Shown piece after piece: positions 5,484 to 40,289 of a stretch of 64,000 nucleotides of DNA. Position 1 is the first letter of the stretch. Each line of letters starts with the position of its first letter. The translations under genes and the position numbers were made by a program. The DNA is from Candidatus Uhrbacteria bacterium RIFCSPLOWO2_01_FULL_47_25 (GTDB lineage Bacteria; Patescibacteriota; Patescibacteriia; GWA2-46-9): NCBI GenBank assembly GCA_001791325.1, contig MGEK01000004.1:8566-72565 (forward strand), in the 5' to 3' direction. The notes beneath the pieces were generated by a model. That model saw only the letters and a program-made list of their open reading frames with translations. It was not told where the DNA came from and ran no database searches.

Positions 5484-5610
5484 GCTGGGAGATCGTCTAA
5501 CTGGCCCCGTTAGAATTTACAAGGACTTCCTCCTAAAGCTGCCGGGTCGTCTAACGGTAGGACGCCAGGTTCTGGCCCTGGTAATCTAGGCCCGCCCCCA
5601 CACTAATAAG
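5484..5610 (+). pseudogene. tRNA-Gln-like 5' fragments. A 5'-fragment CTGGGAGATCGTCTAA is interrupted by a CCCCGTTAGAA element end. B is the 5' two-thirds of a tRNA-Gln(CTG)-like gene ending in the T-stem, followed by stem arm CCCGCCCCCACACTAAT
   Basis: Sequence identity to the intact tRNA-Gln at 5792; anticodon arm CCAGG-TTCTGGC-CCTGG. Confidence 0.5.
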
Positions 5611-5652
5611 ATCATCTCATAAATTTGTGGTGAAATGTAATAATGTAATGTT

Positions 5653-5726
5653 GTACATATGCCTGCGGGGTCGTCTAATGGTAGGACACGACGCTCTGGA
5701 CGTCGGTATCTAGGCACGCCCCGCAC
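5653..5726 (+). pseudogene. tRNA-Gln(CTG) 5' part (acceptor, D and anticodon arms, T-stem 5' strand) followed by stem arm CACGCCCCGCACC. Its 3' partner is at 5881-5920
   Basis: CTGCGGGG...CGACG-CTCTGGA-CGTCG...CTAGG; acceptor complement CCCCGCAG is found at 5901-5908. Confidence 0.5.
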
Positions 5727-5791
5727 CAATTTAACTTTGTCTAGATGTTATTGTATTATACTTTTACATAAAAAGATCTAAGAAGCCGATC

Positions 5792-5863
5792 TGGGAGATC
5801 GTCTAATGGTAGGACACGACGCTCTGGACGTCGGTATCTAGGTTCGAATCCTAGTCTCCCAGA
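5792..5863 (+). tRNA. tRNA-Gln(CTG), intact
   Basis: TGGGAGA/TCTCCCA acceptor, D-arm TCTAATGGTAGGAC, anticodon arm CGACG-CTCTGGA-CGTCG, T-arm CTAGG-TTCGAAT-CCTAG. Confidence 0.8.
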
Positions 5864-5880
5864 TTGGTTTCTTAGAAATT

Positions 5881-5979
5881 GGTGCGGGGTGAAAGTCCTA
5901 GCCCCGCAGGCATGTGTACAATTTGAGAAAGTTGTTAATCTGAACGATTAGTGTGGGGGTGAAAGTCCTAGTCTCCCAG
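5881..5979 (+). pseudogene. tRNA-Gln 3' fragments: GGTGCGGGGTG-AAAGT-CCTAG-CCCCGCAGG (5881-5910) and AGTGTGGGGGTG-AAAGT-CCTAG-TCTCCCAG (5950-5979)
   Basis: Each is a T-stem 3' strand plus acceptor 3' strand, preceded by the complement of the stem arms at 5713-5726 and 5591-5607. Confidence 0.5.
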
Positions 5980-6251
5980 CTTAGCCACTTTATGAACAGT
6001 TAATTAGTGCTGGGTAAGATAGTCTGATTTCAAAAAATAAAAATGAAAGGGCTTGGCTAGAAAATGATATTTTGCTAAAATAGTCGCAGTAATTATTAAT
6101 CGTATAACGTAATCTTTATGGGTGGAAACAGCGCCAAGCGCGCGAGAATGAAGCAGGAAGCAAAACGAGCCAAAAAGCGGCGAGCCAAAAAGTAGTTTTT
6201 GATTATTTTTTTAAATGTCATTGACCACAGAATCAATGGCAAAATTGACTT

Positions 6252-7425: not shown

Positions 7426-7542
7426 AATGATTTTGTCTGGAATAATAGAATAGTAAAAATGGAGGAGTTTTTATCCCTATCCCCCGGGGCGGACTGGTTC
7501 GGCGGCAAAGTGCTGGATAAACAAAAAATATGTTATAATATA

Positions 7543-7663
7543 CCCCGTTAGAAGTCTGACTTAGCATAATAATTGCGGCTCTAGTCATGAATAAATACAT
7601 CAACCAGTTAAACACTATAATCATCACAGCCCCGCATAGCGGGGCCGAGGACTTCTAACGGGG
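7543..7663. mobile_element. MITE/RPE-like palindromic element, family 1 (TIR CCCCGTTAGAAG...CTTCTAACGGGG), copy 1
   Basis: 12-bp perfect terminal inverted repeats; internal GCCCCGCATAGCGGGGC hairpin. It is the reverse-orientation relative of copy 3. Confidence 0.65.
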
Positions 7664-7685
7664 TAGATTTTTAAGGTTAGTTCTA

Positions 7686-16600: not shown

Positions 16601-19600
16601 CAACTCTTCCGGCGACACCTTCACGGCTGGTGTGGCTGTTGCGGCTACTAACAAAGTGCTCGTAACCGCCGGTATCCTTGCCATGGGTGCCAATGCTTTG
16701 ACCGCAGGCTCCACAGGTGTCACTGACTCTGGCCAAATTAGTGTGGCTTCCGGTCATTCTCTAACCTCAAGTGGCACCGTCACCATCGTTAGCTCGGCCG
16801 CAAGTACAGCGAGTTGCCTTGGCGGAACAACCCTGCCGGGGTGCACTGGCGCAGTGGGCACACTCACTTTATCCACTCTTGTTATCGGTGACGGAGCCAC
16901 CACCATGACCACGGCTTTTGGTGGTACCACTCCGAGCATGGCCATTTCTACGCTTCTCAATATCACTACGAACGCCACCTTCACCGCCGGTACGGGAAGT
17001 ACTATTACTTTGTCAGCGGCTGGCACTCCCATTACTCGAGACGGGAACTTCAGATGCGGTACAAGCACGGTTGCTTATACTTCCTCCACCGGAGTTGACG
17101 CCCTGTCTTCGGCCGCCATGACCGGTGACTGCACAACCGGAAACGCCTTCTACAACCTAGTTATAAACGGTACAAACAATTTTCCCGTTACTAACGATAT
17201 TATTGTTACTAATAATTTAACCGTGACGGCAGGGTCACTTACTGGTACAAGCAATGTAACCGCCAACAGTAATGTTGCCTGTGGCGTTACTTGCGGCTCG
17301 ATTACTTTGACCGGCGGCACGTTTCTCCAATCAGTAGGGGATGCCAAAAATTTTGGCACAAATGTAGACGAAGACGATACTTGGACATTTAACAATCTTA
17401 CTTTTACAGCCACCACAGATACCATAACCACGAGTTCCAATGGTACTGGCAACATAAATGTTACTGGCGACTTAACTATTTCCGGCTCAACCACTCTGGA
17501 CGCAGGAGACAGAACATTCGTTTTGTCAGGTAGTTCCGGCTCGCCGTTCGTGAAAACAGGCACTTTCACTTACAATACTTCCACGATTAAATATACTGGT
17601 ACGACAGTAACGGTATTATCTATGACCGGCACCGGTGGTAGTGATGGGTACTATAATCTCACGGTGGACGGCACCGGGCCATTTAACGCCGGCGGAGCAA
17701 TTGTAGCAAATAACGATGTCACGGTAACGTCCGGCACACTGGCTATGGGGGCGAACGCCCTCACAGTGAACGGCGGCGACATCTCGGTCAGCGGTATCTT
17801 CTCGCAAACCGCGGGCAGCGCCACCACAGTTGTCACTACTGGCTCCATTGGAGGCGCGGGTACTACGACCTTTGGCGAGCTTAACATTGGCACTGGTTCA
17901 AGTGACCAAACTACTACGGCTGGCGGCGACTTCACTGTCTCCGGCGTTCTGACCACTGTCTCATCTTCCAGCACCAACAATTTTGACGCTTCTTCTAAGA
18001 CCATCACCCTCTCGGGCACAGGCACGCCGTTTGTGAATAACGAGACGTTTACTTATGGGACTTCCACTATAAAATACACTGGCAGTGATACCACCACAGT
18101 TCTTGCGATGACTGGCACCGGTGGGACAAATGGATATTATAAATTGATAACTCAAGGCACAGGTCCGTTTAACGCTGGCGGAAGTATCACAGCCAACAAC
18201 AATATCAACATTACGAGCGGCACTTTTGCCGTTGGCGGAAACACCTTAATTGGTGCCAATATCACTGTTGACGGCGGTTCGTTGTCGGCAACAACGAGCG
18301 GCGGAAAAATTAAAATTTCCGGCGGCGGAGATTTGTCCGTCACGAGCGGAAGCATTGTTACGGCTGATGTGGCGACCCCGGTTGAAATCACAAGTTCTGA
18401 TACCGCTACGCCAACCTATGTTGGCGTGAGCGTTACTGGCGCTTCCAGTACAATAAATATCCCCGAATTGGATATTGATTATTTAAAGAGCACGGGATTT
18501 GTCGTTGGCGCGAGCGTTACCGTCACGGCCATGGATAAGGTGAGATGGGGCGGGAGCGGTGGAACATGGAATGGACAGGCGGCGGTGGGCGAAGTGCTGT
18601 TAGACGCCACGAGTTTAACTAAGACGCTTGATGGTCATGTTTTTCCAAATACATGGGCGAGCCAAGGCGGTTCTGATTGCAACGTCAGAGCGAATACTGA
18701 TGGTACTGTCACCATGACAAATTTTTCCGGAACATATAGTGGCGAAGACTATGATTGCGATAATGGCGGTACGGTAACATGGGTCAGCGGGCTCTCGATA
18801 GCCGGCACGGTTTATACTGACGAAGGGTCAACTCGTATGACCACTGGACCGACCGTGCGCGTAAAAGTTGATGGAGCAGGGGACTTCAGTGATGTGGCAG
18901 ATACTACCAATTGCCCGGGGAGTAGCCCCTGCGGTGAATACCTTATCACAGGTGTCACTCCTACGGACAGCGGAGCAGTGCTTACGATTTATCTTGATGA
19001 TGAAACAGAGAATGCCACCACTGTCACCATATCGAGCGGCTTGGATTTAACGGGCATAGACCTTTACCAAAATCGTGTCATCGTGCGATACGAAACCGGC
19101 AGCAGTATTACTAATACCAATTTAGACCAATATGACTGGGTTAACGAAGGTGATGCGAATATTGATGGAGACATTGGTTTCCAGGTGACAGCCGGCGCTT
19201 TGACAGTCTCTAAAGACAGAGAACTCCACATCTGGACAGGCAAGACTTTCACGCCGGGCGGAAGCGTTACCACAAATACCGGAGGCAGTGGAGTTGGTGG
19301 AGACGTCCATATTGTGGGAATTTTTACAGCCACGACTACCGAGAGTCATTCGGTCGGCGGCTCCTGGACTGATACTGGCACGTTCAATCCCGCCAGCTCA
19401 ACGGTCACGTTTGCCGCCACCTCTGGCACGAAAACCATCACTTCAACCGGCTCGTCATTTTATAATTTGATTATCAACGGTTCGGGCGGCGAGTTTCAGC
19501 CACAAGACGCCATGGTTGTTACAAACGACCTTACTATAACCGCGGGCACGCTGTCGGGAACGCAAAACGTGACGGTTAACGGCCATGCTGTAGGTACCGC

Positions 19601-21356
19601 CGGAATAATCAGTCTTACGGGGGGCACATTTGAGCAGCGAGTAATCGCTAACAAAAATTTTGGTCCAACGACCGCCAGCACCAGCTGGACGTTTAGCACG
19701 CTCATTTTTTCTAACAGCAATGCTGGAGCCACGGAAATTATGATTTTTACTGAACCCTGTAGTACTTGCGGCGTGACCGTTAGCAGTATTCTTTATATTG
19801 GAAAATCTGGCGATGCGGTTGACGCGACAACTACTCTAAATGCTGAAGACAAAATTTGGACACTATCGGGCACGGGCGGCGATCCTTTCCAGATTTTGGC
19901 CTCACCAGCGGGCGATTTAGCGCCAGCTGCTGCCACTTTTGTTTACACTGGCAATAACGAGGCGGGTAATACCACAGTGCAGTCCGAAACCTACATTGGG
20001 TTAGAGTTTAACAACGGTTCAGAAATATATGCCTTGGAAGGGGAAACTAGTGGCAGCACGACAGTGACAATTACTGCCGGCACTTTGAATCTTAATGGAC
20101 AAACATTAACTTCTAACGGCAATCTCATTGTCAATGGTACGTTGTCAGGAGCAACTGATGTTATGGTGAATGGCAATGTTACTGGCAGTGGCATAGTAAC
20201 CTTGACCGGCGGTACGTTTGAGCAGGTTGTGTTTACCGACAAAACGTTTGGCTCAAGCTCTGGTACGAATACGTGGACTTTTAGTGGTTTGAAATTTAAT
20301 AACTCTAGCGGTGCGGCTGGCCGCACGATTACGCCAAACGCCGGTACGGGCGATGTAGTGGTTTCTGGAACACTGACGCTTGGCGACAGCGGAACGCAGA
20401 TAATTACCTTTAATAATGATACTAATGATAGAGTCTTTGACTTGAATGGCGCGATTCTTATATCAACCCAAGGCTCCTTTACTGCTTCAAATAGTGTCGC
20501 GTTCTCTGTAGCAAGTAATTTTACCAATAACGGCGCCTTTGCCCATTCCAGCGGTACCGTGACATTTGACACGACAGGCATAAGCATTCTCGCTGGCACC
20601 GGTTCGCCCGCCATAACTTTTTTCAATTTCACTTCAACCACGGCCGGAAAAACAATCAATTTTACAGCCGGACAAACTTTTAGAATAAACGGCAAATTGA
20701 CTATTTTGGGCGCTGACCTAAATCCGGTTAATCTTCATTCAACTTCATCTCCGACGCTATGGACAATAAATCATCAAGGAACAGAAAGCGTGCAATACGC
20801 CGATATAGACGATAGCGCTTGCGACGGTAGTAGCAACATCAGTCTTGATAGCACGTCCACCGGCACTAACGATGGGACTTGTTGGCTTTTCCCGAGTTTG
20901 TCTTTCACCATCAGTCCGACAAGCGTTAGTCTTAATTTAACATCCCCGACTTTTACTACGACGGCCACTAATACATTGACCGTGACCGCGCGAGCTGAAT
21001 TTGGCTATACTTTGACTGCGTATGAAACTGGCGTGCTAACACATACGGCATATCCGAGCAAGACCATAGATGATTGGACTGGCATCCATCCAACTGGTTC
21101 GGCTTGGTCAAGTACTTGTATCGCGGCAAGTGAATGCGGTTTTGGTTATAATACGAGCGACGCTGATATTGGCATGAGTACTAATTATTCCGCTTTTGCC
21201 GGTTTATTAGACGCGCCCGGCGACGCCGTGGCGAGTTCCTCGGGACCAGTCACTGGCGAGGCCACCACCATCACCTACCGCTCTTCAGTTAGCGCCATTC
21301 AAGCCGCTGGGCCATATCAGACGACCATTATATATATAGTGACGCCACAGTTCTAG
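7686..21356 (+). CDS. giant (4556 aa) cell-surface protein: basic N-terminus plus signal-anchor TM, acidic linker, Ig-like domains, long Thr/Gly-rich parallel beta-helix-type repeats, WxL-like C-terminal domain (likely ATG start at 7695)
   Basis: Single uninterrupted ORF. TM GVIGTVVVVLFISSLF; repeated DFTWGVLVVN.../DYTWGVLAFN... domains; many repeats of ...TFTxxGTxTxSGTVTFDG...; C-terminus shares W...GFGY...AGxYxxTIxYIxTPxF with ORF 23614..24882. Confidence 0.8.
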   Translation: MVKMSKLLGAKKRKNPAHHGRNKPVARGQRQETRAKKRLKERVLGVIQRQVKLRELKVLARRGVIGTVVVVLFISSLFVRAEPNPLLVHEVIYPQSCRGTWQGMNNIFTQELDARAEADDFNKTNSAMPALGEPTVAAVPGKEEYNAFTVSLPILDQQSNVDTLMDQPSDTDQDLQLIIPPIIPSQEESPVENAPSQNTPIEDNDNNSENKSLENAPSEQVLGEEDKADDSSQPVTDEQLSTEKSNEEQEQPLSPPSQPQPQEPLDTQLFPEPETKPLAPPDDTLPMPTEPPATEPSGAEPSSTDQPIINFNNLLDKLINKALAEEDAILNTDTNASTADTNGAETKVDSNSEADGFSVEDIVKSVAEKIGDIVSDSADKVSEIIAPITAEPVDIQNLTPGTPSLETKPEAEDSPSLLGTLFDAVGQAISAITDLISPLPPSVLEAPSFAIQDSNILKTENGTMACADFTPPATTQIEQASLGLSYTLKDQSPLPNEQSGFLWAEYTQDRQNWMILSSIEDTNSSVESAYHLFNFPPDFDAGRISETIVRLRWFGKYDEPEIFIDSLWLDVARLGDSEQEKPSELKTAKKDFAAFEDPVFNLSFDPQVPLSAKRGVIFDNSQSQSIIEKYKERYKQWLESWANFIIQKPLSFARNALAQSPSADQATPNDAALWHETNLDISARLLTKDYGPTDIVPELLRLNSGQFKISLAARAFRPGAYILQTTIQKGESVQTLEQDFTWGVLVVNTDQSVYKTGDEASFFFGVLNDKGETACDATLEAKITDPAGQAVTLATADGTIKSSSSCAKNSVTDTPDYGATYHTTTAGTYALAVTATTVEGSHTITDTFSAQDDLPYRVRRRGASRIYPLAKYEMSIEVTARNDFKGTVTERVPLDFIVTPSSNFVITAVEDAQALTWDVALQAGESQNFTYEYNAPDISPAIFHLGEFSLTASGADQPIFIEPNQWEIASDGLDPVIIHAPEVALRPEVRGKAERLAREVPLPENVPHHTRSMEGNFESRKMNRPVSLALAREQVPPNAKISVVDAYGKEITDGIVVNTEEDTMTVDINPDAKGMRPGKYTLYVTDPDTEEVLAEQDYTWGVLAFNPDYAVYPPNTTANLSFGVLDDAGRVLCDAALVAIIADPSGNETVLGTGDGSIRVNEECYQMEDTQKPDYEANFDTTIPGIYQMTIIAKSKNGERTLNDSFSVDPNAAFYLKRTGPTRTYHPATYNYSLDFTAKEAGTYDITEKVPASFTITGDGFTVTEQDQTKILHWQVTAVAGETKTLAYRFKGPPLSPYLFLLGAAEVKTSSPNQTWVEPREWMLASDNACSSDVDPSGNWNTAGSWTSCGGVVPTTTDTVAIVDGDTITIDSAPNSVISVNINLGGTLNGGSATLNINNTAASGTSFTNSGTWTSSTGTVNFGSDVALTMLSGSFIGSNNFNNITHTFTPTAARTYTVGAAVEIGGNWTSTPGSTSNARDLTINLSGATTVTGTLTLDGRGCNNGAADGTASTTQFSTNGQNLTVRAIVVDGITNGDGCRFTTANSSVVTFTGTGTTTLFTLGQTGSTALMTTGTTTEWDVTSVSGTPTLFSTSGTTITVHILKIAASATIVNLGAAFTIDANSGNKLWINSGILNQENRTITAGASATLQIDSGGTLCLGGTTASTTANCASGATQATAQAMPSFTTYTFDAASTVSYLSNANVVFSSTPNYGNLTLNPVLISTNRTYTPGGAMTINGDFTINPNESFTDTPSLTVDPLNNYTVASGKTTTITKTNAATSVLILPLAVSQYLSTGKLVIASGGTLNGAISSATIIIKDTGAAFTNSGTYTYGLTKVSYTNTTSSTVLGMTGTSGTNGYYDLDINGTGGTHTLGANTTANNATTITAGTLNTSAASSFTLTTSTLSITGGLTANASFINITGAGAAFTKSGTFTYGTSTVEYTNATGATVLSMNNVGSTNAYYTIWVANGSHTLGGDIRVYGDLASVSGTLSDATDSVTVVGSVTCFAAFACGTITFTGGTFTQIVAANQTFGTNASDSTIDWTFNNLTFDSSSGSNTITLGNIGLTGTGQIIVNGTLTIGTGGTMTTLQADTYDRIIDANIVTITSKGILFASSSALFTVAGAFTHTSGGTFTHSNGIVTFDGTAALNFVNNTTTFYDVVVATGVTRTITAGASNVLTIANTLTINGTGRMVSFSSEQLYLTKNGETPLIVGGATAVNGLTLVVYRPAGTATNVAATTYNYLYILPTAATTLTLLGATTVNVNLLVTGPGAGIVATLDTNGQTLNVVGAVVAGFGTPGAVIIGASTVDVDGDVLIWDVSGSYISMTSGSLNVGGNWSNGANSVFTAGTGTVTFDAADAGNTIATGGTDSNHDFYDVIFDNSAGSWIFQTNDVLISNNLTVTNTSATGVNASVNVTVNGSVTGAGVINITNSVTFTQKVAAVSKTFGTTSGANDWTFYNLAFENSSGPRTIDTNGGSGQIIVSNTLTIGNADDSTVTTLDNNTTNDRIIDANIVTITSKGSLTASSSALFTIAGDFTNNGTFTHSSGTVTFDGASANINIPDAGITFYKVIIDISSPNAKTLVNGATIAVMTVANTLTVNGTGALTSGGGNEQVKLTKDGDTGGVPLTVGGATAVSGVAAFIYAPAGAATTVTGTTYSSLTINPTAATTLTLGEAVITSGALYVFGPNSTTAATLNTNNYDLTVGGALFVGAWYLGYADGVVNLGSSTVTVSGDVWIMQDTGSELDAGSSTLTVGGNWVWFSAFSSGGIFTAGTSTVKFNAGDAGNTIDAGAGAFNNVIFDNAAGSWTFQTTAATISGDLTMTAATQVNASVNVTVNGNVSCGVTCGTINITNAVTFTQSVDAAKNFGTSVVDDATVWTFSSLTFTATTDTITTSSNGTGNINVTGTLTISGSTTLDAGDRNWVLSGAGTPFARTGTFTGNTSTFNYTSTTGVDALSSAAMTGSNAYYNLTINSSGDTFTAGVAVAATNKVLVTAGILAMGANALTAGSTGVTDSGQISVASGHSLTSSGTVTIVSSAASTASCLGGTTLPGCTGAVGTLTLSTLVIGDGATTMTTAFGGTTPSMAISTLLNITTNATFTAGTGSTITLSAAGTPITRDGNFRCGTSTVAYTSSTGVDALSSAAMTGDCTTGNAFYNLVINGTNNFPVTNDIIVTNNLTVTAGSLTGTSNVTANSNVACGVTCGSITLTGGTFLQSVGDAKNFGTNVDEDDTWTFNNLTFTATTDTITTSSNGTGNINVTGDLTISGSTTLDAGDRTFVLSGSSGSPFVKTGTFTYNTSTIKYTGTTVTVLSMTGTGGSDGYYNLTVDGTGPFNAGGAIVANNDVTVTSGTLAMGANALTVNGGDISVSGIFSQTAGSATTVVTTGSIGGAGTTTFGELNIGTGSSDQTTTAGGDFTVSGVLTTVSSSSTNNFDASSKTITLSGTGTPFVNNETFTYGTSTIKYTGSDTTTVLAMTGTGGTNGYYKLITQGTGPFNAGGSITANNNINITSGTFAVGGNTLIGANITVDGGSLSATTSGGKIKISGGGDLSVTSGSIVTADVATPVEITSSDTATPTYVGVSVTGASSTINIPELDIDYLKSTGFVVGASVTVTAMDKVRWGGSGGTWNGQAAVGEVLLDATSLTKTLDGHVFPNTWASQGGSDCNVRANTDGTVTMTNFSGTYSGEDYDCDNGGTVTWVSGLSIAGTVYTDEGSTRMTTGPTVRVKVDGAGDFSDVADTTNCPGSSPCGEYLITGVTPTDSGAVLTIYLDDETENATTVTISSGLDLTGIDLYQNRVIVRYETGSSITNTNLDQYDWVNEGDANIDGDIGFQVTAGALTVSKDRELHIWTGKTFTPGGSVTTNTGGSGVGGDVHIVGIFTATTTESHSVGGSWTDTGTFNPASSTVTFAATSGTKTITSTGSSFYNLIINGSGGEFQPQDAMVVTNDLTITAGTLSGTQNVTVNGHAVGTAGIISLTGGTFEQRVIANKNFGPTTASTSWTFSTLIFSNSNAGATEIMIFTEPCSTCGVTVSSILYIGKSGDAVDATTTLNAEDKIWTLSGTGGDPFQILASPAGDLAPAAATFVYTGNNEAGNTTVQSETYIGLEFNNGSEIYALEGETSGSTTVTITAGTLNLNGQTLTSNGNLIVNGTLSGATDVMVNGNVTGSGIVTLTGGTFEQVVFTDKTFGSSSGTNTWTFSGLKFNNSSGAAGRTITPNAGTGDVVVSGTLTLGDSGTQIITFNNDTNDRVFDLNGAILISTQGSFTASNSVAFSVASNFTNNGAFAHSSGTVTFDTTGISILAGTGSPAITFFNFTSTTAGKTINFTAGQTFRINGKLTILGADLNPVNLHSTSSPTLWTINHQGTESVQYADIDDSACDGSSNISLDSTSTGTNDGTCWLFPSLSFTISPTSVSLNLTSPTFTTTATNTLTVTARAEFGYTLTAYETGVLTHTAYPSKTIDDWTGIHPTGSAWSSTCIAASECGFGYNTSDADIGMSTNYSAFAGLLDAPGDAVASSSGPVTGEATTITYRSSVSAIQAAGPYQTTIIYIVTPQF

Positions 21357-21360
21357 TGAA

Positions 21361-21516
21361 GAATATGGAATATTGAATATGGAATATAGGGATGTGCTGT
21401 GAAGAATATGGAATATTGAATATGGAATATAGGGATCGTTGATTTGAGAAAATTAATTGAAGAATATAAAATTTAGAATATAGGGATCGAACGGTGGAGA
21501 ATATTGAATATACATT
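21361..21516 (+). repeat. promoter-proximal block: (GAATATN)4 - 15 bp - (GAATATN)4 - spacer - GAATATAAAATTTAGAATATA - GGGATCGAACGGTGGAGAATATTGAATATACATT. It is near-identical to 26901..27056
   Basis: Direct comparison: 21389-21516 is identical to 26929-27056; the first heptamer arrays differ at 2 positions. Confidence 0.85.
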
Positions 21517-22953
21517 ATGAAAAGTGAGATTAAGTCATTTAGAGATTTGGTGGTATGGCAAAAAGCATCTGCTTTGGCAACTTTGCTGTATAAAGTTACG
21601 GAAAATTTTCCTAAAACAGAAATATATGGAATAACAAGTCAGATGCGACGGGCAGCGGTATCGGTTTCTTCTAATATTGCCGAGGGATTTAAAAGAAATT
21701 CAAAAAAAGAAAAAGTGCAGTTTTATTCAATGGCTTATGGGTCTCTTTCGGAATTGGAAAGTCAAATAGAAATTTCTTTTCGTCTGGAATATTTAACAAT
21801 TACTAACTACGATCAAATTTTATCCGCAATCAACGAAGTTTCTCGACTCCTAGACGGTATTATTAGGTCCACTAATAGAAATTATCAAAGTAGGTTTGAT
21901 GTTCTCGTTGCTGTATCTATATTCTATATTCTATATTCTATATTCCCAATCTCACCGGCTAATGCTGGTGAAATTGGTCTGGCTGTCACAAGAAACCGCT
22001 TTGATATTGAGATGCTCTCGGGCGACACATACAAGGGTGATTTAGCCGTGTATAATAAATCAGCAGACGCCGCCTTGCCTGTGCACGTGGAATTGGCGCT
22101 CTGGAACATTAAAGAGGATTCTGAAGATATTGAGTTTGTTCAAGCGGAGTCATTGCTTAATGCCACACGTTGGTTTGAGGTTCAGCCGAAAGATTTTATT
22201 TTAGACCAAGGCGGCGATAGGCAAATTAAGTTTGAGATCACGGCTCCCAAAGACGCTTCGCCCGGAGCGTACTTGGTAATGATGCGTTTTCAGGCGGTTT
22301 TGCCGGAACATTATTTTTTGAAAGAAGGTCCAAGATTTTTGCCCGAGATTGGCGTTTTGTTTTTCATCAATGTCAGAACACTGGCCATTGACAGCGCGGC
22401 AGAAAATAATCGCTTAAATATCGTTTCATTTGAACCCGAAGGGACGCATCGCTTAACTTTTATTGACCGTTACGTGGTAAGTCCTGCCAATGCTGGCGTA
22501 TTTGACGAAGCAGTAAAAAAATTAGTGGCTAAAATTGAAAATAAAAGCATCTATTATTTTAAAGCCTCCGGCTTTGTCGTTATTAAAAACTTGTTTGGCC
22601 AGACAGTGTCACTCATTAAAATTCCCGAAAAATTTTTACTTCCCAACCGTACTCGCAGCATCCCCATCACCGTTATCACACCACCAACGGAACAATCAAA
22701 ATCCAATATTCTATATTCCATATTCTATATTCTTCAACAACAAACATACCTCGGCCCCTACACCGCGACACTAACGCTCAACGTTCCATCAAGCAATGGG
22801 GGAGTAGAGCCAATTTCAGAATCAATCAATTTCTGGATTATCCCATGGAAGTTTTGGTCGGCCGTTATTATTATAGCGTTGTTAATCGCGTTCATTATAT
22901 TAAAATTGCGGCGTCGGCTTCGGCCGGCACTAAGTGCGCTGATCGGACGCTGA
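21517..22953 (+). CDS. four-helix-bundle (23S rRNA IVS protein / Avd-like) domain fused to TM segment, DUF916-like surface domain and C-terminal TM anchor
   Basis: N-terminus FRDLVVWQKA...FPKTEIYGITSQMRRAAVSVSSNIAEGFKRNS matches the TIGR02436/PF05635 signature. Downstream WFEVQPKDF...VPKDASPGAYLVMMRF and the terminal hydrophobic helix + RRRLR resemble CscA/DUF916 proteins. Confidence 0.7.
   Translation: MKSEIKSFRDLVVWQKASALATLLYKVTENFPKTEIYGITSQMRRAAVSVSSNIAEGFKRNSKKEKVQFYSMAYGSLSELESQIEISFRLEYLTITNYDQILSAINEVSRLLDGIIRSTNRNYQSRFDVLVAVSIFYILYSIFPISPANAGEIGLAVTRNRFDIEMLSGDTYKGDLAVYNKSADAALPVHVELALWNIKEDSEDIEFVQAESLLNATRWFEVQPKDFILDQGGDRQIKFEITAPKDASPGAYLVMMRFQAVLPEHYFLKEGPRFLPEIGVLFFINVRTLAIDSAAENNRLNIVSFEPEGTHRLTFIDRYVVSPANAGVFDEAVKKLVAKIENKSIYYFKASGFVVIKNLFGQTVSLIKIPEKFLLPNRTRSIPITVITPPTEQSKSNILYSIFYILQQQTYLGPYTATLTLNVPSSNGGVEPISESINFWIIPWKFWSAVIIIALLIAFIILKLRRRLRPALSALIGR
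21918..21945 (+). repeat. (TATATTC)4 heptamer array inside the CDS at the 4HB/TM junction (inverted relative to the upstream GAATATN arrays)
   Basis: Read directly; encodes IFYILYSIF. Confidence 0.85.
22705..22732 (+). repeat. second (NATATTC)4 heptamer array inside the same CDS, just before the C-terminal TM anchor
   Basis: AATATTC TATATTC CATATTC TATATTC. Confidence 0.8.
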
Positions 22954-26894: not shown

Positions 26895-26900
26895 TTGTAA

Positions 26901-27056
26901 GAATATGGAATATAGAATATTGAATATAGGGATGTGCTGTGAAGAATATGGAATATTGAATATGGAATATAGGGATCGTTGATTTGAGAAAATTAATTGA
27001 AGAATATAAAATTTAGAATATAGGGATCGAACGGTGGAGAATATTGAATATACATT
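26901..27056 (+). repeat. second copy of the promoter-proximal block (heptamer arrays + 128 bp identical to 21389-21516)
   Basis: Direct comparison with 21361-21516. Confidence 0.85.
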
Positions 27057-28595
27057 ATGAAAAGTGAAATTAAGTCATTTCGAGATTTGATAGTTTGGCA
27101 AAAATCTTCCAATTTAGCAACTTTAATATATGGCATTACTAACGATTTTCCCAAGAGCGAAATGTATGGTTTGACCAGTCAAATGCGCCGAGCTGTTGTA
27201 TCAGTTTCATCTAACATTGCAGAAGGCTTCAAACGAAACTCTAGAAAGGAGAAGGTACAATTCTACACAATGGCCTATGGTTCTCTTTCAGAATTAGAAA
27301 GCCAGATTGATATTTCAAAAAATCTTCACTATTTATTGGAAAGCCAATACCAAACAATAATTGAGGCAATTAACGAGGCGTCAAGGCTTTTGGACGGTAT
27401 TATTAGAGCCACTAACAGAACTCACAACGATCGTTTTTTTTCGCCTGCCATCTCTGTACTACTTGCCGTTGCGATCTCTGTATTCTATATTCAATATTCT
27501 ATATTCCCAACAGCGCCTGCCGGCGCTGTTTCGTCCGTGCGGCTTTTTTTTATTCCGGAAAATTCCGAGGTCGTTGCCGGTGATATTATAAAAAGTGACA
27601 TTTGGGTAGACACGCAGGGAAATACTATCAATGCGGTGGATATTAGTGTTTCTTATGATTCAATGGTTGAGCTTTTAAGCGCGGAGAAAAATGATTCAAT
27701 TTTGAATTTATGGGTTGAGGAACCGAGCTTTTCCGATACTACGCGCCGCGCTAAATTTACCGGCGGCCGTACTGGCGGGTTTGAGGGTCGGGGAATAATT
27801 GGGCAGTTGTATTGGAGAAATGAAAACGCCGGGGGAAAAGCAACTTTAGGCTTTGATGAGTCGTCTGTTGTTTTATTAAATGATGGATTGGGTACTCCAG
27901 CGGAGCTAGAGAGACGACAATCGGATTATAATATATTGGCCAAGGGAGAGGGTTTATTGAATTTATCTTCGGCCTCGCACCCGGATGAAAATAAATGGTA
28001 TAATCAGCCGTTTGTGCGTTTAAGTTGGCCGACAATAGAAGGCGCGATTTACAGCTATTTAGTTACGAGGGATCCGGCTCAACTACCAGATGACACGTTG
28101 GACGAGCCAGTAGGCAATATTAAGCTAAGCGACCTGACGGACGGCGTATATTATTTTAAGCTTAAACAAAAAAAACTCGGCGAAGAAGGGTGGTCCAGTG
28201 TTGTTTCCAGACAAATTAAAATTGACAAAACGCCGCCGGAATTTATTGAGGCAAAGATTTCACGTGATTCGGAACTTGTTCAAAATAAGTATTTCGCGAG
28301 CTTTGCCGCTAACGACAAGGCATCTATAGCTCGTTATGAAATAATTGAAGGGGATAGCGCTCCGGAGCCGATATTGCAGCCGCCATTTATTTTAAAAAAT
28401 CAAGATAGAAGCGTGGCCGTTACAATTAGAGCCATTGACGCGGCCGGTAATTACAAGGACATAATTATACCGGCCCTGACTTGGTGGCAAAGGCCGTCAA
28501 TTATTTTATATGTGAAAATAGGGCTTATTGTCGGGCTAGCTCTAATTGCAGCGGTGATAATAATTGTGATTATCAGGAGAAAAAAATCAATATAA
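27057..28595 (+). CDS. four-helix-bundle (Avd/23S-IVS-like) domain fused to TM, cohesin-like domain, Ig-like domains and C-terminal TM anchor
   Basis: N-terminus FRDLIVWQKSSNLATLIYGITNDFPKSEMYGLTSQMRRAVVSVSSNIAEGFKRNS. Cohesin-like INAVDISVSYDSMVELLSAE...LWVEEPSFSD. (TATATTC)4 at 27479-27506. Terminal TM + RRKKSI. Confidence 0.65.
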   Translation: MKSEIKSFRDLIVWQKSSNLATLIYGITNDFPKSEMYGLTSQMRRAVVSVSSNIAEGFKRNSRKEKVQFYTMAYGSLSELESQIDISKNLHYLLESQYQTIIEAINEASRLLDGIIRATNRTHNDRFFSPAISVLLAVAISVFYIQYSIFPTAPAGAVSSVRLFFIPENSEVVAGDIIKSDIWVDTQGNTINAVDISVSYDSMVELLSAEKNDSILNLWVEEPSFSDTTRRAKFTGGRTGGFEGRGIIGQLYWRNENAGGKATLGFDESSVVLLNDGLGTPAELERRQSDYNILAKGEGLLNLSSASHPDENKWYNQPFVRLSWPTIEGAIYSYLVTRDPAQLPDDTLDEPVGNIKLSDLTDGVYYFKLKQKKLGEEGWSSVVSRQIKIDKTPPEFIEAKISRDSELVQNKYFASFAANDKASIARYEIIEGDSAPEPILQPPFILKNQDRSVAVTIRAIDAAGNYKDIIIPALTWWQRPSIILYVKIGLIVGLALIAAVIIIVIIRRKKSI

Positions 28596-29996: not shown

Positions 29997-30020
29997 CGGG
30001 TAGTGGCAGTTTTGAGTTGA

Positions 30021-30126
30021 AGAATATAGAATATTGAATATGGAATATGGGTATTGAACCGCGAAGAATATAGAATTTAGAATATGGGTTTGAAATTAGA
30101 AGATATAGAATTCAGAATATAGGTGT
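30021..30126 (+). repeat. heptamer arrays (AGAATAT AGAATAT TGAATAT GGAATAT; AGAATAT AGAATTT AGAATAT; AGAATTC AGAATAT) upstream of 30127
   Basis: Read directly; same family as 21361-21431. Confidence 0.8.
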
Positions 30127-31527
30127 ATGAAAAGCGAAATTAAATCGTTTAGAGATTTGATTGTGTGGCAGAAGGCAGCCGCCCTTGTGTTGATCGCTAT
30201 ATTCTATATTCTATATTCTATATTCCCAATCTCGCCAGCTAACGCTGGCTCTGCCTCACTCTCATTGGTTTCCTCAAAGCGAACTTACACCGTCGGCGAA
30301 AATGTCGCGGTTAGCGTTATTTTGAGCACGGGAGATGTTAGCATTAACGCGGCAAGCGCTACGATTACGTTTGACCAAAAGAAGCTCTCAGTAGTAAGCG
30401 TTTCTCGTTCCGGTTCAGTCTTCACTTTATGGGCGGAAGAACCAACCTTTTCAAATTCTCAAGGAGTAATTAGTTTGGGCGGAGGGTTGCCAACGCCGGG
30501 TTTTTCCGGTAGGGGAGCGATTATTATCAGAATTACTTTTCGGGCAAAAGAAGAAGGCACAACGGCTGTCAGATTTGCCGGCGGAACGGTTTTGGCGAAT
30601 GACGGACTGGGCACTAATGTTTTAGCAGGACTCACTGGTCTTGATTTAACTATTCAGGGAAGGGCGGTCGTTACAACGCCGCCGGAGAAACCCCTAGAAA
30701 GAGCGCCGGTTGTTACCCCACCAGGTCAAGTGCCGTTGGCGCCGGTTATTTTGTCGCGTACGCATCCTGACGAGTCTGGTTGGTATCGCAATGCCCAGCC
30801 GGGTATTATTTGGGAATTACCGTCTGATGCTAAGGGAGTAAGTGTTAGTATTGATCAAAACGCGAATGGTGATCCCGGCACAACCTCTGAAGGGCTATTT
30901 AACTTTTACAGCGCCAAGGAGCCGCTTAAAGATGGCGTTTGGTACGCCCATGTCAGGGTAAGCAATAGTCGCGGTTGGGGGGCGATTGGTCATTACCGCT
31001 TAGCTATTGATACCGCGCCGCCGATGATTACAACGGCAAAATTGGTGTTTGAAGCAGCCAGAACCAAGGCCATAGAATTTGCCACTAGCGACCCCTTATC
31101 ATCAACCGACTATGTATCTATTTTAGTCAATGGAGAACAGGTCGCCTCGCAAGCTAGCTCGCCATACACCTTACCGTCATTAATTCCCGGCAATCATGTG
31201 ATTACAGTAATAGCCTATGATAAAGCAGGCAATAAAGCGTCCCAGGATCTCTATTTGAGCATTTTGAGCCAAGAAATATCAAGCGCGCCAAGAACAAGTC
31301 TTTTAATCATTATCATTCTTATTCTCGCCTTGATTTTGCTGGTTATATTTATCATCTGGCACTTCTATGAACGCCATCATCGCCGGGCCATTTTGGAAGA
31401 ATTAGCCAAAACCAGGCGAGAGCTTAAAGGAATGTCGCAAAAGTTACGCTCACTGGAGGGTAAATTAAATGCCCATGCTAATGCAAATGTCAGTGAAAAG
31501 TCCCAAACAACAATTAAAAAAATATAG
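30127..31527 (+). CDS. cohesin-like-domain surface protein whose N-terminus retains only the first ~19 codons of the 4HB module (MKSEIKSFRDLIVWQKAAA) joined directly to the (TATATTC)4-encoded TM segment
   Basis: Compare MKSEIKSFRDLIVWQKAAALVLIAIFYILYSIFPISPANAG with the 21517 protein; heptamer array at 30198-30225; cohesin-like ATITFDQKKLSVVSVSRSG...LWAEEPTFSNSQG. Confidence 0.65.
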   Translation: MKSEIKSFRDLIVWQKAAALVLIAIFYILYSIFPISPANAGSASLSLVSSKRTYTVGENVAVSVILSTGDVSINAASATITFDQKKLSVVSVSRSGSVFTLWAEEPTFSNSQGVISLGGGLPTPGFSGRGAIIIRITFRAKEEGTTAVRFAGGTVLANDGLGTNVLAGLTGLDLTIQGRAVVTTPPEKPLERAPVVTPPGQVPLAPVILSRTHPDESGWYRNAQPGIIWELPSDAKGVSVSIDQNANGDPGTTSEGLFNFYSAKEPLKDGVWYAHVRVSNSRGWGAIGHYRLAIDTAPPMITTAKLVFEAARTKAIEFATSDPLSSTDYVSILVNGEQVASQASSPYTLPSLIPGNHVITVIAYDKAGNKASQDLYLSILSQEISSAPRTSLLIIIILILALILLVIFIIWHFYERHHRRAILEELAKTRRELKGMSQKLRSLEGKLNAHANANVSEKSQTTIKKI

Positions 31528-31833: not shown

Positions 31834-32148
31834 ATGAATACAGCCGTCATCAAAACTGGGGGTAAACAATATTTGGTTAAGCCTGACCAACGACTTAAGG
31901 TTGAAAAACTAACCGGTGAAGTCGGCGCGGAGGTAGTTTTTAGCGACGTTTTGTTGGTTGCCAATAATGATCAGCTTATAGTCGGTCAACCAGTGGTAAA
32001 AGAGGCAAAAGTGACAGCCACGATTGCCAAGCAGGGTAGAGGCAAAAAAATTATCGTGCAAAAATATAAACCCAAAGTTCGTTATCAAAGGAAGCGCGGT
32101 CATCGTCAACCGTTCACAGAGATCGTTATTGGAAATATAGAGTATTAA
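31834..32148 (+). CDS. rplU: 50S ribosomal protein L21
   Basis: AVIKTGGKQYLV...KVTATIAKQGRGKKIIVQKYKPKVRYQRKRGHRQPFTEI. Confidence 0.9.
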   Translation: MNTAVIKTGGKQYLVKPDQRLKVEKLTGEVGAEVVFSDVLLVANNDQLIVGQPVVKEAKVTATIAKQGRGKKIIVQKYKPKVRYQRKRGHRQPFTEIVIGNIEY

Positions 32149-32253
32149 CCCCATTAGAGAATGCCCCGCCCCGCTACGCCACGGCGGGGTGCGGGGTGCA
32201 ATTTTCCCATACGAGCACGGGGTCTAATGCCCCGTGCGAGTTCTCTAACGGGG
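32149..32253. mobile_element. MITE/RPE-like element family 1, copy 2 (CCCCATTAGAGAATGCCCCGC...CTCTAACGGGG)
   Basis: TIRs; flanked by TTAA / TTAAC direct repeat; begins immediately after the rplU TAA. Confidence 0.65.
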
Positions 32254-35397: not shown

Positions 35398-35431
35398 TTA
35401 AAACTAAAGCTTATCTTTATGCGCTTAATTT

Positions 35432-35533
35432 ACCCCGTTAGAGAATGCCCCGCTCCGCCCCGCCGCGGCGGGGTGCAATTTCCCCGTACGAGCACGACGG
35501 GGTCTAATGCCCCGTGCGAGTTCTCTAACGGGG
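35432..35533. mobile_element. MITE/RPE-like element family 1, copy 4
   Basis: CCCCGTTAGAGAATGCCCCGC...GTGCGAGTTCTCTAACGGGG. One frame translates without stops to NPVRELARGIRP...GAFSNGV (spurious ORF 35425..35649). Confidence 0.65.
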
Positions 35534-37884: not shown

Positions 37885-38011
37885 TGGAGCTGGAGGCGAG
37901 ATTTGAACTCGCGACCCATCGCTTACGAAGCGATTGCCCCGCCTGCCATCGCCTAAGCTTCCTGTTAGAATTGAACTGACGTCCGCGGTTTACCTGCCCG
38001 CCATTTGCCTA
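37885..38011 (-). pseudogene. tRNA-derived fragments: 3' two-thirds of a tRNA (anticodon arm ATCGC-TTCGTAA-GCGAT, T-arm GCGAG-TTCAAAT-CTCGC, CTCCAGC-T-CCA) without a matching 5' acceptor strand, plus palindromic stem arms
   Basis: Reverse complement read directly; required acceptor 5' strand GCTGGAG is absent. Confidence 0.45.
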
Positions 38012-38083
38012 AGCCAGCGGTGAGATTTGAACTCACGACCTCTGCTTTACGAAAGCATTGCTCTACCTCTGAGCTACGCTGGC
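38012..38083 (-). tRNA. tRNA-Thr(CGT)
   Basis: Reverse complement GCCAGCG-TA-GCTC-AGAGGTA-GAGC-A-ATGCT-TTCGTAA-AGCAG-AGGTC-GTGAG-TTCAAAT-CTCAC-CGCTGGC-T. Confidence 0.8.
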
Positions 38084-38190
38084 AAATCGCGATGGCAGGC
38101 GGGCGATACCGCTGTTCTACCACTGAACTAAGGAGGCTCGGGACATGGCGGGCAGGTCTACCGTTGAGCTACTCCGGCATGCTTTAATAA
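38084..38190 (-). pseudogene. tRNA 5'-half-like fragment (GCCTCCTTAGTTCAGTGGTAGAACAGCGG) plus stem arms complementary to 37937-37954 / 37985-38009
   Basis: D-arm recognisable; no cognate 3' half. Confidence 0.4.
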
Positions 38191-38194
38191 AATA

Positions 38195-38265
38195 AGCGGG
38201 ATACCGGGATCGAACCGGTGCTCTCAGCTTGGGAAGCTGATGTAATGCCACTATACTAATCCCGC
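38195..38265 (-). tRNA. tRNA-Gly(CCC)
   Basis: Reverse complement GCGGGAT-TA-GTAT-AGTGGC-ATTAC-A-TCAGC-TTCCCAA-GCTGA-GAG-CACCGG-TTCGATC-CCGGT-ATCCCGC-T. Confidence 0.8.
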
Positions 38266-38269
38266 AAAA

Positions 38270-38340
38270 GATACGGGTAACCCCGCTTAGCGGGGTGTTC
38301 CTAGCTTGGGAAGCTAGTGTACTGCCATTGTACTACACCC
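38270..38340 (-). pseudogene. tRNA-Gly(CCC)-like 5' two-thirds (acceptor GCGGGTG, D-arm, anticodon arm CTAGC-TTCCCAA-GCTAG) followed by a CCCCGC-TAA-GCGGGG hairpin instead of a T-arm
   Basis: Reverse complement read directly. Confidence 0.45.
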
Positions 38341-38540
38341 GCACGATACACGACCATAGCCAATCGGTTCTTCTTTTGATATAATAAAAAACAAAACTTG
38401 TCAGAATACGTTATACGTTTCTAGAGTATAGAAAATGGAGCATTTATTGGCAAGGTGTTGGGTGATATTTGCCAGTCTGCCGCTCTTTTTTATTAAATTT
38501 CACGAATTCCCGAGCATAAGTTCGGAGATTATTTAGAAGA

Positions 38541-40128: not shown

Positions 40129-40160
40129 GTTAGCGGCTGGCGCGAAGTCCCGCCCTCTTC

Positions 40161-40231
40161 TCGGGGGTCGTCTAATGGCAGGACATCACCCTTTGGAGGT
40201 GAGTATGATGGTTCGAATCCATCCCCCCGAG
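40161..40231 (+). tRNA. tRNA-Gln(TTG) embedded in an ~18-bp extended acceptor helix (CCGCCCTCTTCTCGGGGG...CCCCCGAGAAGAGGGCGG)
   Basis: TCGGGGG/CCCCCGA acceptor; anticodon arm TCACC-CTTTGGA-GGTGA; T-arm GATGG-TTCGAAT-CCATC. Confidence 0.8.
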
Positions 40232-40289
40232 AAGAGGGCGGGAGAGCCGTGAACTCAATAGTTTAGAAATGGCATAGAGCTATAAATAG

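Follow-up and report, generated by a model that had tools for sequence, protein, structure and literature searches.

A 64,000-nt stretch of the genome of Candidatus Uhrbacteria bacterium RIFCSPLOWO2_01_FULL_47_25 (assembly GCA_001791325.1, contig MGEK01000004.1, positions 8,566 to 72,565; hereafter the window) contains a tRNA-Thr(CGT) locus in which an intact gene sits inside a broken copy, and this copy inside another broken copy. The locus probably records repeated invasion by small, site-specific mobile cassettes, which carry a complete tRNA gene as cargo and overwrite the tRNA genes, here termed hosts, into which they are inserted. Transfer RNA genes were called with ARAGORN, and tRNA and ribozyme models were scored with Rfam; all coordinates are window positions, and comparison loci are designated by L numbers. 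On the minus strand, the interval 37885-38178 is tiled exactly by nine abutting segments with zero leftover bases:

38157..38178 (-), 5' piece of P1 (GCCGGAGTAGCTCAACGGTAGA), the outermost, dead tRNA-Thr(CGT), broken after nt 23; the 5' strands of acceptor and D stem, the D loop, and the D-stem 3' strand as far as its second base
38138..38156 (-), left arm and leader of cassette 1, CCTGCCCGCCATGTCCCGA (= CCTGCCCGCCAT GTCCCGA); pairs with 37938-37955
38104..38137 (-), 5' half of P2, the cargo tRNA-Thr(CGT) of cassette 1, ending …GGTATCG, broken after anticodon base 35
38084..38103 (-), left arm and leader of cassette 2, CCCGCCTGCCATCGCGATTT (= CCCGCCTGCC ATCGCGATTT); the cassette-1 arms in inverted orientation
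38012..38083 (-), intact innermost tRNA-Thr(CGT) (ARAGORN; Rfam, 68.1 bits)
37993..38011 (-), trailer and right arm of cassette 2, TAGGCAAATGGCGGGCAGG; pairs with 38084-38103 in the minimum-free-energy fold
37956..37992 (-), 3' half of P2, TAAACCGC…AGGAAGCT, from anticodon base 36 to the discriminator
37938..37955 (-), trailer and right arm of cassette 1, TAGGCGATGGCAGGCGGG; consensus over 24 cassettes, AGGCG(T/A)(A/T)GGCAGGCGGG
37885..37937 (-), 3' part of P1, GCAATCGCTTCGTAAGCGAT…CTCCAGCTCCA; last two D-stem bases, anticodon arm (CGT), T arm, acceptor 3' strand, and CCA (Rfam partial tRNA match, 31 bits)

The intact tRNA-Thr(CGT) thus lies within a copy broken at 35|36 (P2), which in turn lies within a copy broken at 23|24 (P1), and GC-rich, mutually complementary arms separate the successive levels. 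When the halves of P1 were rejoined in silico (junction GGTAGA-GCAATCGC), ARAGORN called a tRNA-Thr(CGT) with 20 of 21 stem pairs, and the rejoined halves of P2 (junction GGTATCG-TAAACCGC) were likewise called as tRNA-Thr(CGT); joining of P1 and P2 halves to the wrong partner gave no tRNA call by ARAGORN. In folding, the 294-nt RNA forms a concentric set of three cloverleaves (-123.8 kcal/mol, z = -4.74; none of 200 shuffles as good), in line with the folding check that the original prediction had called for. The nested observation is confirmed. The arms and inverted repeats reported earlier were present and correctly placed, and ARAGORN and Rfam agreed with the earlier calls of an intact tRNA-Thr(CGT) and tRNA-Gly(CCC). 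The two tRNA fragments noted at that time are real as well, but they belong to a set of four pieces of two tRNAs; the P1 5' piece (38157-38178) and the P2 3' half (37956-37992) had been overlooked and are both evident from the exact tiling.

Uncompensated mismatches are found at C3·A70 in P1 and in P2, and at C51·A63 in P2, and we infer that the inner tRNA-Thr (38012-38083) is the sole functional Thr copy in the nest. The levels are divergent alleles with 62-76% mutual identity: the inner gene (type A) shares 86% identity with the plain tRNA-Thr(CGT) found in the relatives L010 and L083, and P2 is a type-B tRNA-Thr(CGT) that is 83-85% identical to those of L082 and L090 and of the same type as in L015. 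These divergent Thr(CGT) types occupy one syntenic locus and are patchy among lineages. In four relatives (L090-L093), the P2 orthologue is intact and un-nested (anticodon loop ATCGTAA), with eroded versions of the same leader and trailer and no host relic, and intact P2 orthologues with the loop ATCGTAA are found also in L119 and L183; the intact gene in L090-L093 demonstrates that P2 of the window, a Thr(CGT) gene, has been split at bases 35|36. The reverse complement of the right end of cassette 2 equals the standard left end, with the cargo still co-oriented with its host, and the locus shows 'crossed' perfect repeats because both cassettes bear the same arms in opposite orientation.

The region of the Thr nest is base-identical in three independent assemblies of the Joint Genome Institute (JGI) and the European Nucleotide Archive (ENA) (L001, L003, L004). 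Another assembly, L002 (National Center for Biotechnology Information [NCBI] LCND01000032), is without 119 nt (window 37906-38024) between the GAGTTCAAATCTC T loops of the inner tRNA-Thr and P1; the deletion fuses these two into one chimeric tRNA for which there is no ARAGORN call, and reflects either recombination between nest levels or assembly collapse.

The same D-arm junction, GGTAGA|CCTGCCCGCCAT…GGCAGGCGGG|GC, recurs across dozens of unrelated metagenome contigs. Metagenomes were queried with the 18-mer junction GGTAGACCTGCCCGCCAT, which returned at least 120 matching loci, many of them in high-GC coding DNA and due to chance; the same arms at the same D-arm position are carried by at least 36 tRNA-associated, non-redundant loci in metagenomes and in named Patescibacteria genomes. 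In viral contigs, a pattern of 15 specified bases gave matches in such numbers as chance would produce at this length, and is uninformative. Among the matches listed, a cargo tRNA is present in 24 non-redundant loci. The inserts of these 24 cassettes are mostly 106-113 nt in length, of which about 72 nt are the tRNA, and two are longer (150 and 251 nt). The cassette consensus is CCTGCCCGCCAT-CGCCTAA-(tRNA)-AGGCGTAG-GCAGGCGGG with a leader of 6-8 nt, and the cassette ends, CCTGCCCGCC and GGCAGGCGGG, are complementary at eight of 10 positions and conserved in all 24; they pair over 10 bp, in which one T·G and one C·A are conserved, followed by a 5-bp helix, stacked under the cargo acceptor stem. 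No open reading frame (ORF) was found inside any cassette, and among approximately 210 loci examined there were no arm pairs more than 260 nt apart that enclose an ORF, as would be expected for an autonomous element.

On removal of the insert, 12 of the 24 hosts rebuild to a complete tRNA; the other 12 are truncated, chimeric, further interrupted, or cut by a contig end. A single boundary offset suits 11 of the 12 rebuilt hosts, and the Arg host needs a shift of 1 nt. The anticodon of the cargo equals that of the host in every rebuilt case (Thr CGT, seven; Thr TGT, three; Ala GGC, one; Arg CCG, one). Target-site duplications are absent: the rebuilt hosts are exact, with no base extra or missing, as is the tiling in the window. 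Breakpoints are precise to the base, and cargo and host gene are co-oriented. The main insertion site is nt 23|24 (…GGTAGA|GC…); others are 35|36, after base 37, in the D loop, and in the T loop, and the 5' flanks vary among the insertion sites (TAGA, ATCG, CCCA, ATGG).

Cassettes are far more conserved than their hosts. In the 10 Thr loci compared, cargo and own host are 58-92% identical, and the cargo is 92-100% identical to cargos in other hosts for five of the loci and 79-89% for the rest. The cassettes of L165 and L194 are identical (110/110 nt), with host halves that are 86% and 73% identical and 300-nt flanks at approximately 57% identity, which is the level of unrelated sequence. Similarly, cassette 1 of the window is 91% identical to the cassettes of L119 and L183, and the hosts are 68% identical. 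Several of the surveyed loci are syntenic with the window and encode FtsE proteins of only 46-65% identity, and therefore the phenomenon spans deep lineages of Patescibacteria. These recurrent loci, with their base-precise breakpoints, strongly support the earlier suggestion of a systematic process by way of a tRNA-targeting element.

Judging from their sequences, the interrupted host genes decay. In L194, a hairpin has taken the place of the host T arm, despite a cassette identical to that of L165, whose host is intact; the tRNA-Gly host of L018 is intact and that of L022 is without a T arm; and the outer shell in L089 is truncated. Ten solo inserts of 38-45 nt (among the matches listed) consist of the arms around a GCC-GAA-GGC mini-hairpin, which retains the first and last three acceptor bases of the deleted cargo. 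None of these ten hosts can be rebuilt, and a replacement tRNA is usually adjacent.

Further observations were made on relic tRNAs at these loci. The host of L169 is chimeric, with the 5' acceptor strand GCCGCCT and the 3' end GCGAGTTCAAATCTCGCCTCCGGCT of the P1 type of the window, which suggests that part of the donor's host relic can travel with the cassette. In two Patescibacteria loci (L030, L034), near-perfect palindromes (CCTGCCTGCC, 0-4 nt, G/AGGCAGG) are located within relic tRNAs, at sites in the D loop, anticodon loop and variable region, and a double hairpin TGCGCC-N3-GGCGCA-YTCGCC-N3-GGCGA is located at tRNA-relic junctions in two other Patescibacteria genomes, L019 (~3880, ~7395) and L023 (~5690).

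Across related Patescibacteria the gene order is conserved, with tRNA-Thr(CGT) and tRNA-Gly(CCC) upstream of ftsE, and tRNA-Gln(TTG) after ftsX; closer relatives were retrieved through FtsX and the upstream ORF. Class-level relatives often have plain adjacent tRNAs, and about 19 of 29 loci showed no relic; plain tRNAs without arms (Lys, Gly) are found also in the window itself. Control loci from outside the Patescibacteria gave no relic, with few tRNAs in these loci. The statement that all class-level relatives are plain, based on a gapless scan for extended acceptor helices and on an Rfam E-value scan of eight relatives, was rejected, since these scans were too insensitive: blastn-short searches of tRNAs against tRNA-masked loci uncovered nests in L018, L019, L022, L023 and L028. 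Among these are a tRNA-Gly(CCC) that is interrupted after base 37 (in L018, Falkowbacteria, and in L022, labelled Patescibacteria group), nests of tRNA-Thr and tRNA-Gln(CTG) in an Uhrbacteria genome (L019), and the identical D-arm junction GGTAGA|CCTGCCCGCCAT…GGCAGGCGGG|GCAAT in a single-cell Patescibacteria genome (L028). Most comparison loci derive from metagenome assemblies, with which the single-cell genome and multiple independent assemblies agree. Relics around intact tRNAs in other named genomes share the anticodon of the intact gene.

In a 95% relative (L080, L089), the order of the nest differs, with the P1-type gene in the window's inner type, and this in P2. The P1-type gene has there a fully complementary acceptor 3' strand (CTCCGGC), and the P2 T loop contains a tRNA-less hairpin, CCCGCCTGCC-GTC-GGGCAGGG. 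The contigs of four close relatives (L080, L081, L088, L089) end inside tRNA nests; the cassettes are assembly breakpoints in short-read metagenomes.

Next to the Thr nest, a tRNA-Gly pair and a putative promoter were predicted:

38195..38265 (-), intact tRNA-Gly(CCC), type GCGGGAT, without arms (ARAGORN; Rfam, 63.3 bits)
38272..38342 (-), full-length pseudo-tRNA-Gly(CCC), type GCGGGTG (Rfam, 41.5 bits)
38425..38453 (-), sigma-70-like promoter match TTGCCA-17-TATACT upstream of the tRNA cluster (consensus match only)

The upstream tRNA-Gly had been described as the 5' two-thirds of a gene; it proved to be a full-length cloverleaf, with the acceptor GCGGGTG/TACCCGT, the T stem ACCCC/GGGGT and a 7-nt loop GCTAAGC, abnormal in its T-loop sequence only. 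The hairpin CCCCGC-TAA-GCGGGG that had been noticed in its T arm is present (38281-38295), within the 17-nt T arm ACCCC-GCTAAGC-GGGGT. A 93-nt 'tRNA-Gly(CCC)' called by ARAGORN at 38252-38344 (-) is a false call that joins the pseudo-Gly to the first bases of the next gene. The first 47 nt of the pseudo-Gly match the intact tRNA-Gly(CCC) of relative L086 at 100%, L087 also has this gene intact, and the pseudogene is more decayed in the 95% relative L080; the intact tRNA-Gly(CCC) beside it is a different allele. Hairpins of the form CCCCGC-N3-GCGGGG occur five times in the window (2920, 7323, 7630, 34500, 38281; 0.15 expected), four of them intergenic and mostly without a T tract, and the fifth is the pseudo-Gly T arm. 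Thus, of the nested architecture proposed earlier for both genes, the Thr part stands and the Gly part does not: the Gly pair is a tandem of pseudogene and replacement, with turnover as in the Thr nest, without arms. The resident Gly allele would have been inactivated by the hairpin in its T loop, with a different Gly(CCC) allele alongside. The candidate promoter at 38425-38453 may transcribe the pseudo-Gly, the Gly gene and the Thr nest.

Two tRNA-Gln loci in the window are related in structure:

40149..40242 (+), tRNA-Gln(TTG) (40161-40230) between perfect 12-nt arms CCCGCCCTCTTC / GAAGAGGGCGGG
5486..5980 (+), nested tRNA-Gln(CTG) sister locus, with the intact gene at 5792-5862
5664-5714 with 5897-5909 (+), middle Gln(CTG) copy, split in the T loop
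5540-5590 (+), older split Gln(CTG) copy, with the outermost 16-nt fragment at 5486-5501

The tRNA-Gln(TTG) lies in a perfect 20-nt inverted repeat (40148-40167 / 40224-40243; 7-bp acceptor stem plus 13 bp), where an extended acceptor helix of 18 bp had been reported before, and it is surrounded by vestiges of an older tRNA-Gln anticodon stem (GCGGC…GCCGT). Relative L084 has a clearer outer 5' relic at this gene and covarying arms, CCCGTACATTCC / GGAATGTACGGG. The leader-trailer helices of tRNA-Gln covary, with G·U tolerated about seven times compared to one A·C, which is consistent with pairing in the sense RNA. The arm family of the Gln(CTG) nest, CGCCCC(G/C)CACC…GGTG(C/T)GGGG, is found on both sides of tRNA-Gly (L018, L022) and of tRNA-Thr (L019) as well, and the inner and middle Gln(CTG) copies share an identical stretch of 44 nt in the tRNA body.

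In the proposed mechanism, a cassette would interrupt a tRNA gene and supply its replacement, and repeated invasion would build nests. The host promoter would read through the whole nest, the GC-rich helix of the arms, which stacks beneath the acceptor stem, would allow the inner tRNA to fold without interference from the similar host halves, and RNase P and RNase Z would free the inner tRNA, with the host halves being discarded. Because insertion would kill the target, only insertions into the cognate gene would persist; the survivors would be cassettes that landed in a cognate, usually single-copy gene and that could thereafter not be lost. A later cassette would invade the new resident and produce Russian dolls, at this locus type-A Thr in type-B Thr in P1-type Thr, and the outer shells, then the arms, would erode until a plain gene is left. 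The loci L090-L093 suggest such an end state, with a type-B Thr, eroded arms, and the host relic gone. As the cassettes are without ORFs, the integration enzyme must act in trans. The cassettes are best seen as a variant of small non-autonomous mobile DNA, with a substantial chance of their being a distinct class. More tentatively, and with somewhat less than even confidence, they may be selfish elements of a new class, 'gene-overwriting' homing cassettes, which would spread horizontally among Patescibacteria by duplication-free insertion into the conserved D arm or the loops of essential single-copy tRNA genes, carry the replacement and thus be unlosable, and drive xenologous tRNA turnover, moved by an integration activity that is possibly specific for tRNA structure (DNA or RNA).

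Several points weigh against repeated invasion by mobile cassettes. The cassettes appear to be mobile judging from their distribution only, and no transposase, recombinase, homing endonuclease or integrase was found in the 64-kb window or inside any cassette. The 18-mer used as query includes the D-arm flank, so that the target-site frequencies are biased towards the D arm. The orientation of the arms relative to the cargo differs between the D-arm and the anticodon-loop classes while the cargo stays co-oriented with the host, and arms and cargo are therefore separable modules, for which a simple one-piece transposon model fails to account. The same-anticodon rule is explained here by survivorship; targeting by homology remains as an alternative. 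Finally, half of the 24 listed hosts keep 19-21 of 21 stem pairs, which would also fit retained function; we explain these well-paired hosts as recent insertions.

Retained function is the essence of a different reading, by which the loci are functional intron-containing or split tRNA genes, with the arms as a processing helix, the inner tRNA released, and the outer halves either joined by ligation or serving as a tRNA in two pieces, by analogy with disrupted tRNA genes of Archaea. In keeping with it, the insertions are precise, co-oriented, and in or beside loops, the class in L018 after base 37 is at the canonical intron position, half of the listed hosts rejoin with good pairing, and the leader-trailer helices covary as described for tRNA-Gln. 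We nevertheless consider it unlikely, given that the organism is bacterial, that the arm helix directly abuts the exons with no bulge-helix-bulge (BHB) motif, that no intron or ribozyme family was matched in Rfam, and that the cargo duplicates the anticodon of the host, which would be needless were the host spliced. Moreover, hosts decay, none of the 10 listed solo-bearing hosts is intact, and identical cassettes are found with one host intact and the other destroyed (L165/L194). The functional but unusual tRNA gene structure that had been considered in the original prediction is not supported, in view of the stem mismatches, truncations and extra hairpins, and of solo arms being found in dead hosts only. 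It is also quite unlikely that the nests arose by local duplication or rearrangement with no mobile element, i.e. through slippage, template switching or recombination of paralogues, with the arms as lineage-wide processing stems of precursor tRNAs. The 44-nt identity of the Gln(CTG) copies, the L002 deletion between two T loops as a case of recombination or assembly collapse between levels, and the quasi-palindromic nature of the arms would all agree with such an origin; the levels of the Thr nest are, however, only 62-76% identical, with the closest relatives of each level residing in other genomes, an identical cassette is found within unrelated flanks, the same junction occurs in lineages whose FtsE proteins are as distant as given above, and the Lys and Gly tRNAs of the window are plain and armless.

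The anticodon loop and the T loop are classical target sublocations of integrases, and the relics could be attachment-site (att) remnants of integrase-mediated islands or prophages that were later deleted, for which two loci with only 3' fragments downstream of an intact tRNA (L007, L012) would be examples. This is most unlikely, as 5' relics upstream and 3' relics downstream of a complete tRNA cannot both result from a single-tRNA crossover, and the inserts are just about 110 nt, with no integrase nearby in the 64-kb window and no direct repeats at their ends. The chance is next to negligible that the nest is an assembly or binning artefact, that is, a chimera of tRNA-Thr alleles from co-occurring strains: contigs of the relatives L080, L081, L088 and L089 often end in nests, and L002 differs by its 119-nt collapse, but independent JGI and ENA assemblies give the identical structure, the same architecture is found in the single-cell genome L028 and in contigs of up to 115 kb, and chimeric joins would not give base-exact tiling with complementary arms. 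Two further candidates were rejected. Spread by homologous recombination via long flanks is incompatible with host halves that differ within 6-8 nt of the junction of identical cassettes, and a retro-copy of a mature tRNA with a cargo that has no encoded CCA before the trailer.

If invasion by overwriting cassettes is the correct reading, these loci would represent an unrecognised mobile-element strategy in which an essential gene is destroyed and replaced in one step, and would be the parallel in Bacteria to a connection, debated for many years in Archaea, of mobile elements with disrupted tRNA genes. Precise, duplication-free insertion at GGTAGA|GC, an almost universal motif of tRNAs, implies that an integration activity exists. 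For annotation, nests break assemblies, give false tRNA calls and hide relic genes, and the tRNA complements of Candidate Phyla Radiation (CPR) genomes need nest-aware annotation.

The other genes of the window, which is chromosomal DNA, include housekeeping genes, for DnaX, MetK, DnaB, FtsEX, LysRS (class II), SerRS, GluRS and ClpB. In addition, a single ORF of 4556 aa (7686-21356, +) with many internal direct repeats (families D4, D6, D8, D10-D13, D15) probably encodes a giant surface protein, and the product of 358-2916 (+), 852 aa long, has the ATPase domain of a type IV secretion coupling protein (TraG/TrwB). Three paralogous genes (+) are located within 21357-22953, 26897-28595 and 30018-31527; the products of 21517-22953 and 27057-28595 have an N-terminal 23S-rRNA-IVS/bAvd-like four-helix domain, and that of 30127-31527 has a cohesin domain, the first 57 nt of its gene being 81% identical to the start of 21517-22953 (family D9). 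Arrays of GAATATRGAATAT repeats lie ahead of each of the three, and inverted copies of these follow about 450-560 nt downstream; a 300-nt direct repeat joins 21359 and 26899 (87% identity). A dispersed repeat of about 75 nt, ACCCCGTTAGAGAATGCCCCGC…GCGGGGTGCAATTT, is found at 32144-32220 and 35428-35500 (88% identity over 49 aligned nt), with pieces at 7537-7669, 34480 and 5503; these adjoin other GC hairpins and the outermost tRNA-Gln junction.

No published description of such an element was found in the full-text literature, in which the only related text concerns archaeal tRNA introns and CPR rRNA introns. The disrupted tRNA genes of Archaea comprise genes with non-canonical BHB introns, split and tri-split tRNAs, and the transposing tRNA introns of Thermoproteales (PMC10714607, PMC3978253, PMC4090602). 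Like the cassette loci, they are broken at the D arm, at the anticodon loop or at the T loop, with complementary GC-rich sequences beside the pieces, and their inserts show evidence of movement between tRNA genes. The cassettes differ in their bacterial host, in the absence of a BHB, and in an insert that is a complete tRNA of the same anticodon; further, the interrupted gene decays rather than being spliced, and its pieces are contiguous rather than dispersed. A BHB (two 3-nt bulges, 4 bp apart) was not found at the junctions in the minimum-free-energy or centroid folds, and the arm helix begins directly at both junctions (GGTAGA|CCTGCC… and …GGCGGG|GC). BHB introns belong to archaeal or eukaryotic hosts with the splicing endonuclease EndA, and the genes of the window are bacterial (DnaB, FtsEX, ClpB, class II LysRS); maintenance of the exons is not observed for the 12 of 24 cargo-bearing and 10 of 10 solo-bearing listed hosts that cannot be rebuilt; and split tRNAs of the Nanoarchaeum or Caldivirga type have halves from different loci, which complementary leaders bring together in trans, whereas here the halves adjoin concentrically within a single stretch of 294 nt.

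Group I introns in the anticodon loops of bacterial tRNA genes share with the cassettes a precise, co-oriented, duplication-free insertion and a patchy, homing-like distribution, but such introns have a conserved P1-P9 ribozyme core, usually of at least 200 nt; the cassettes have no such core and are too small, and no maintenance of the host exons is seen. Rfam scans with gathering and E-value thresholds yielded tRNA matches only, and no group I intron or small ribozyme.

Integrative elements with tRNA genes as their targets use their own attP to restore the 3' part of the tRNA that they displace, and Williams reportedly classified, in 2002, the tRNA sublocations that such elements use. As for the cassettes, a tRNA gene serves as the landing site and the damage is offset by tRNA sequence of the element; in contrast to islands with an integrase gene, which are of kb scale and lie between direct repeats of the 3' part of the tRNA, the cassettes are about 110 nt long, have no integrase, and replace the whole tRNA rather than its 3' end, with both 5' and 3' relics remaining and no att direct repeat.

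Rickettsia palindromic elements, Correia elements and REPINs are repeats of the palindrome type or the type of MITEs (miniature transposable elements with inverted repeats) that insert into genes. The cassettes are like MITEs and palindromic repeats in being short (106-113 nt), ORF-less and multicopy, with hairpin-forming terminal inverted repeats and with tRNA-less 'solo' forms, and they differ in the absence of a target-site duplication, in their strict tRNA-gene targets, and in a functional, target-matched cargo; an autonomous partner was not found among the approximately 210 loci. PATE (IS200/IS605-derived) and REPIN elements have their own subterminal hairpin at either end, insert 3' of a constant tetra- or pentanucleotide, and go with a Y1 HUH transposase (TnpA or RAYT). 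For these, the absence of target-site duplications in the cassettes fits; the cassette ends, however, pair mutually rather than forming separate end hairpins, and the 5' flank is not fixed. Like nested transposable elements, in which self-insertion leads to concentric copies with the youngest innermost, the cassettes form concentric nests. With addiction-type elements they have in common that loss would kill the cell, and they differ in that this would be brought about by replacement of an essential gene and not by a toxin-antitoxin pair.

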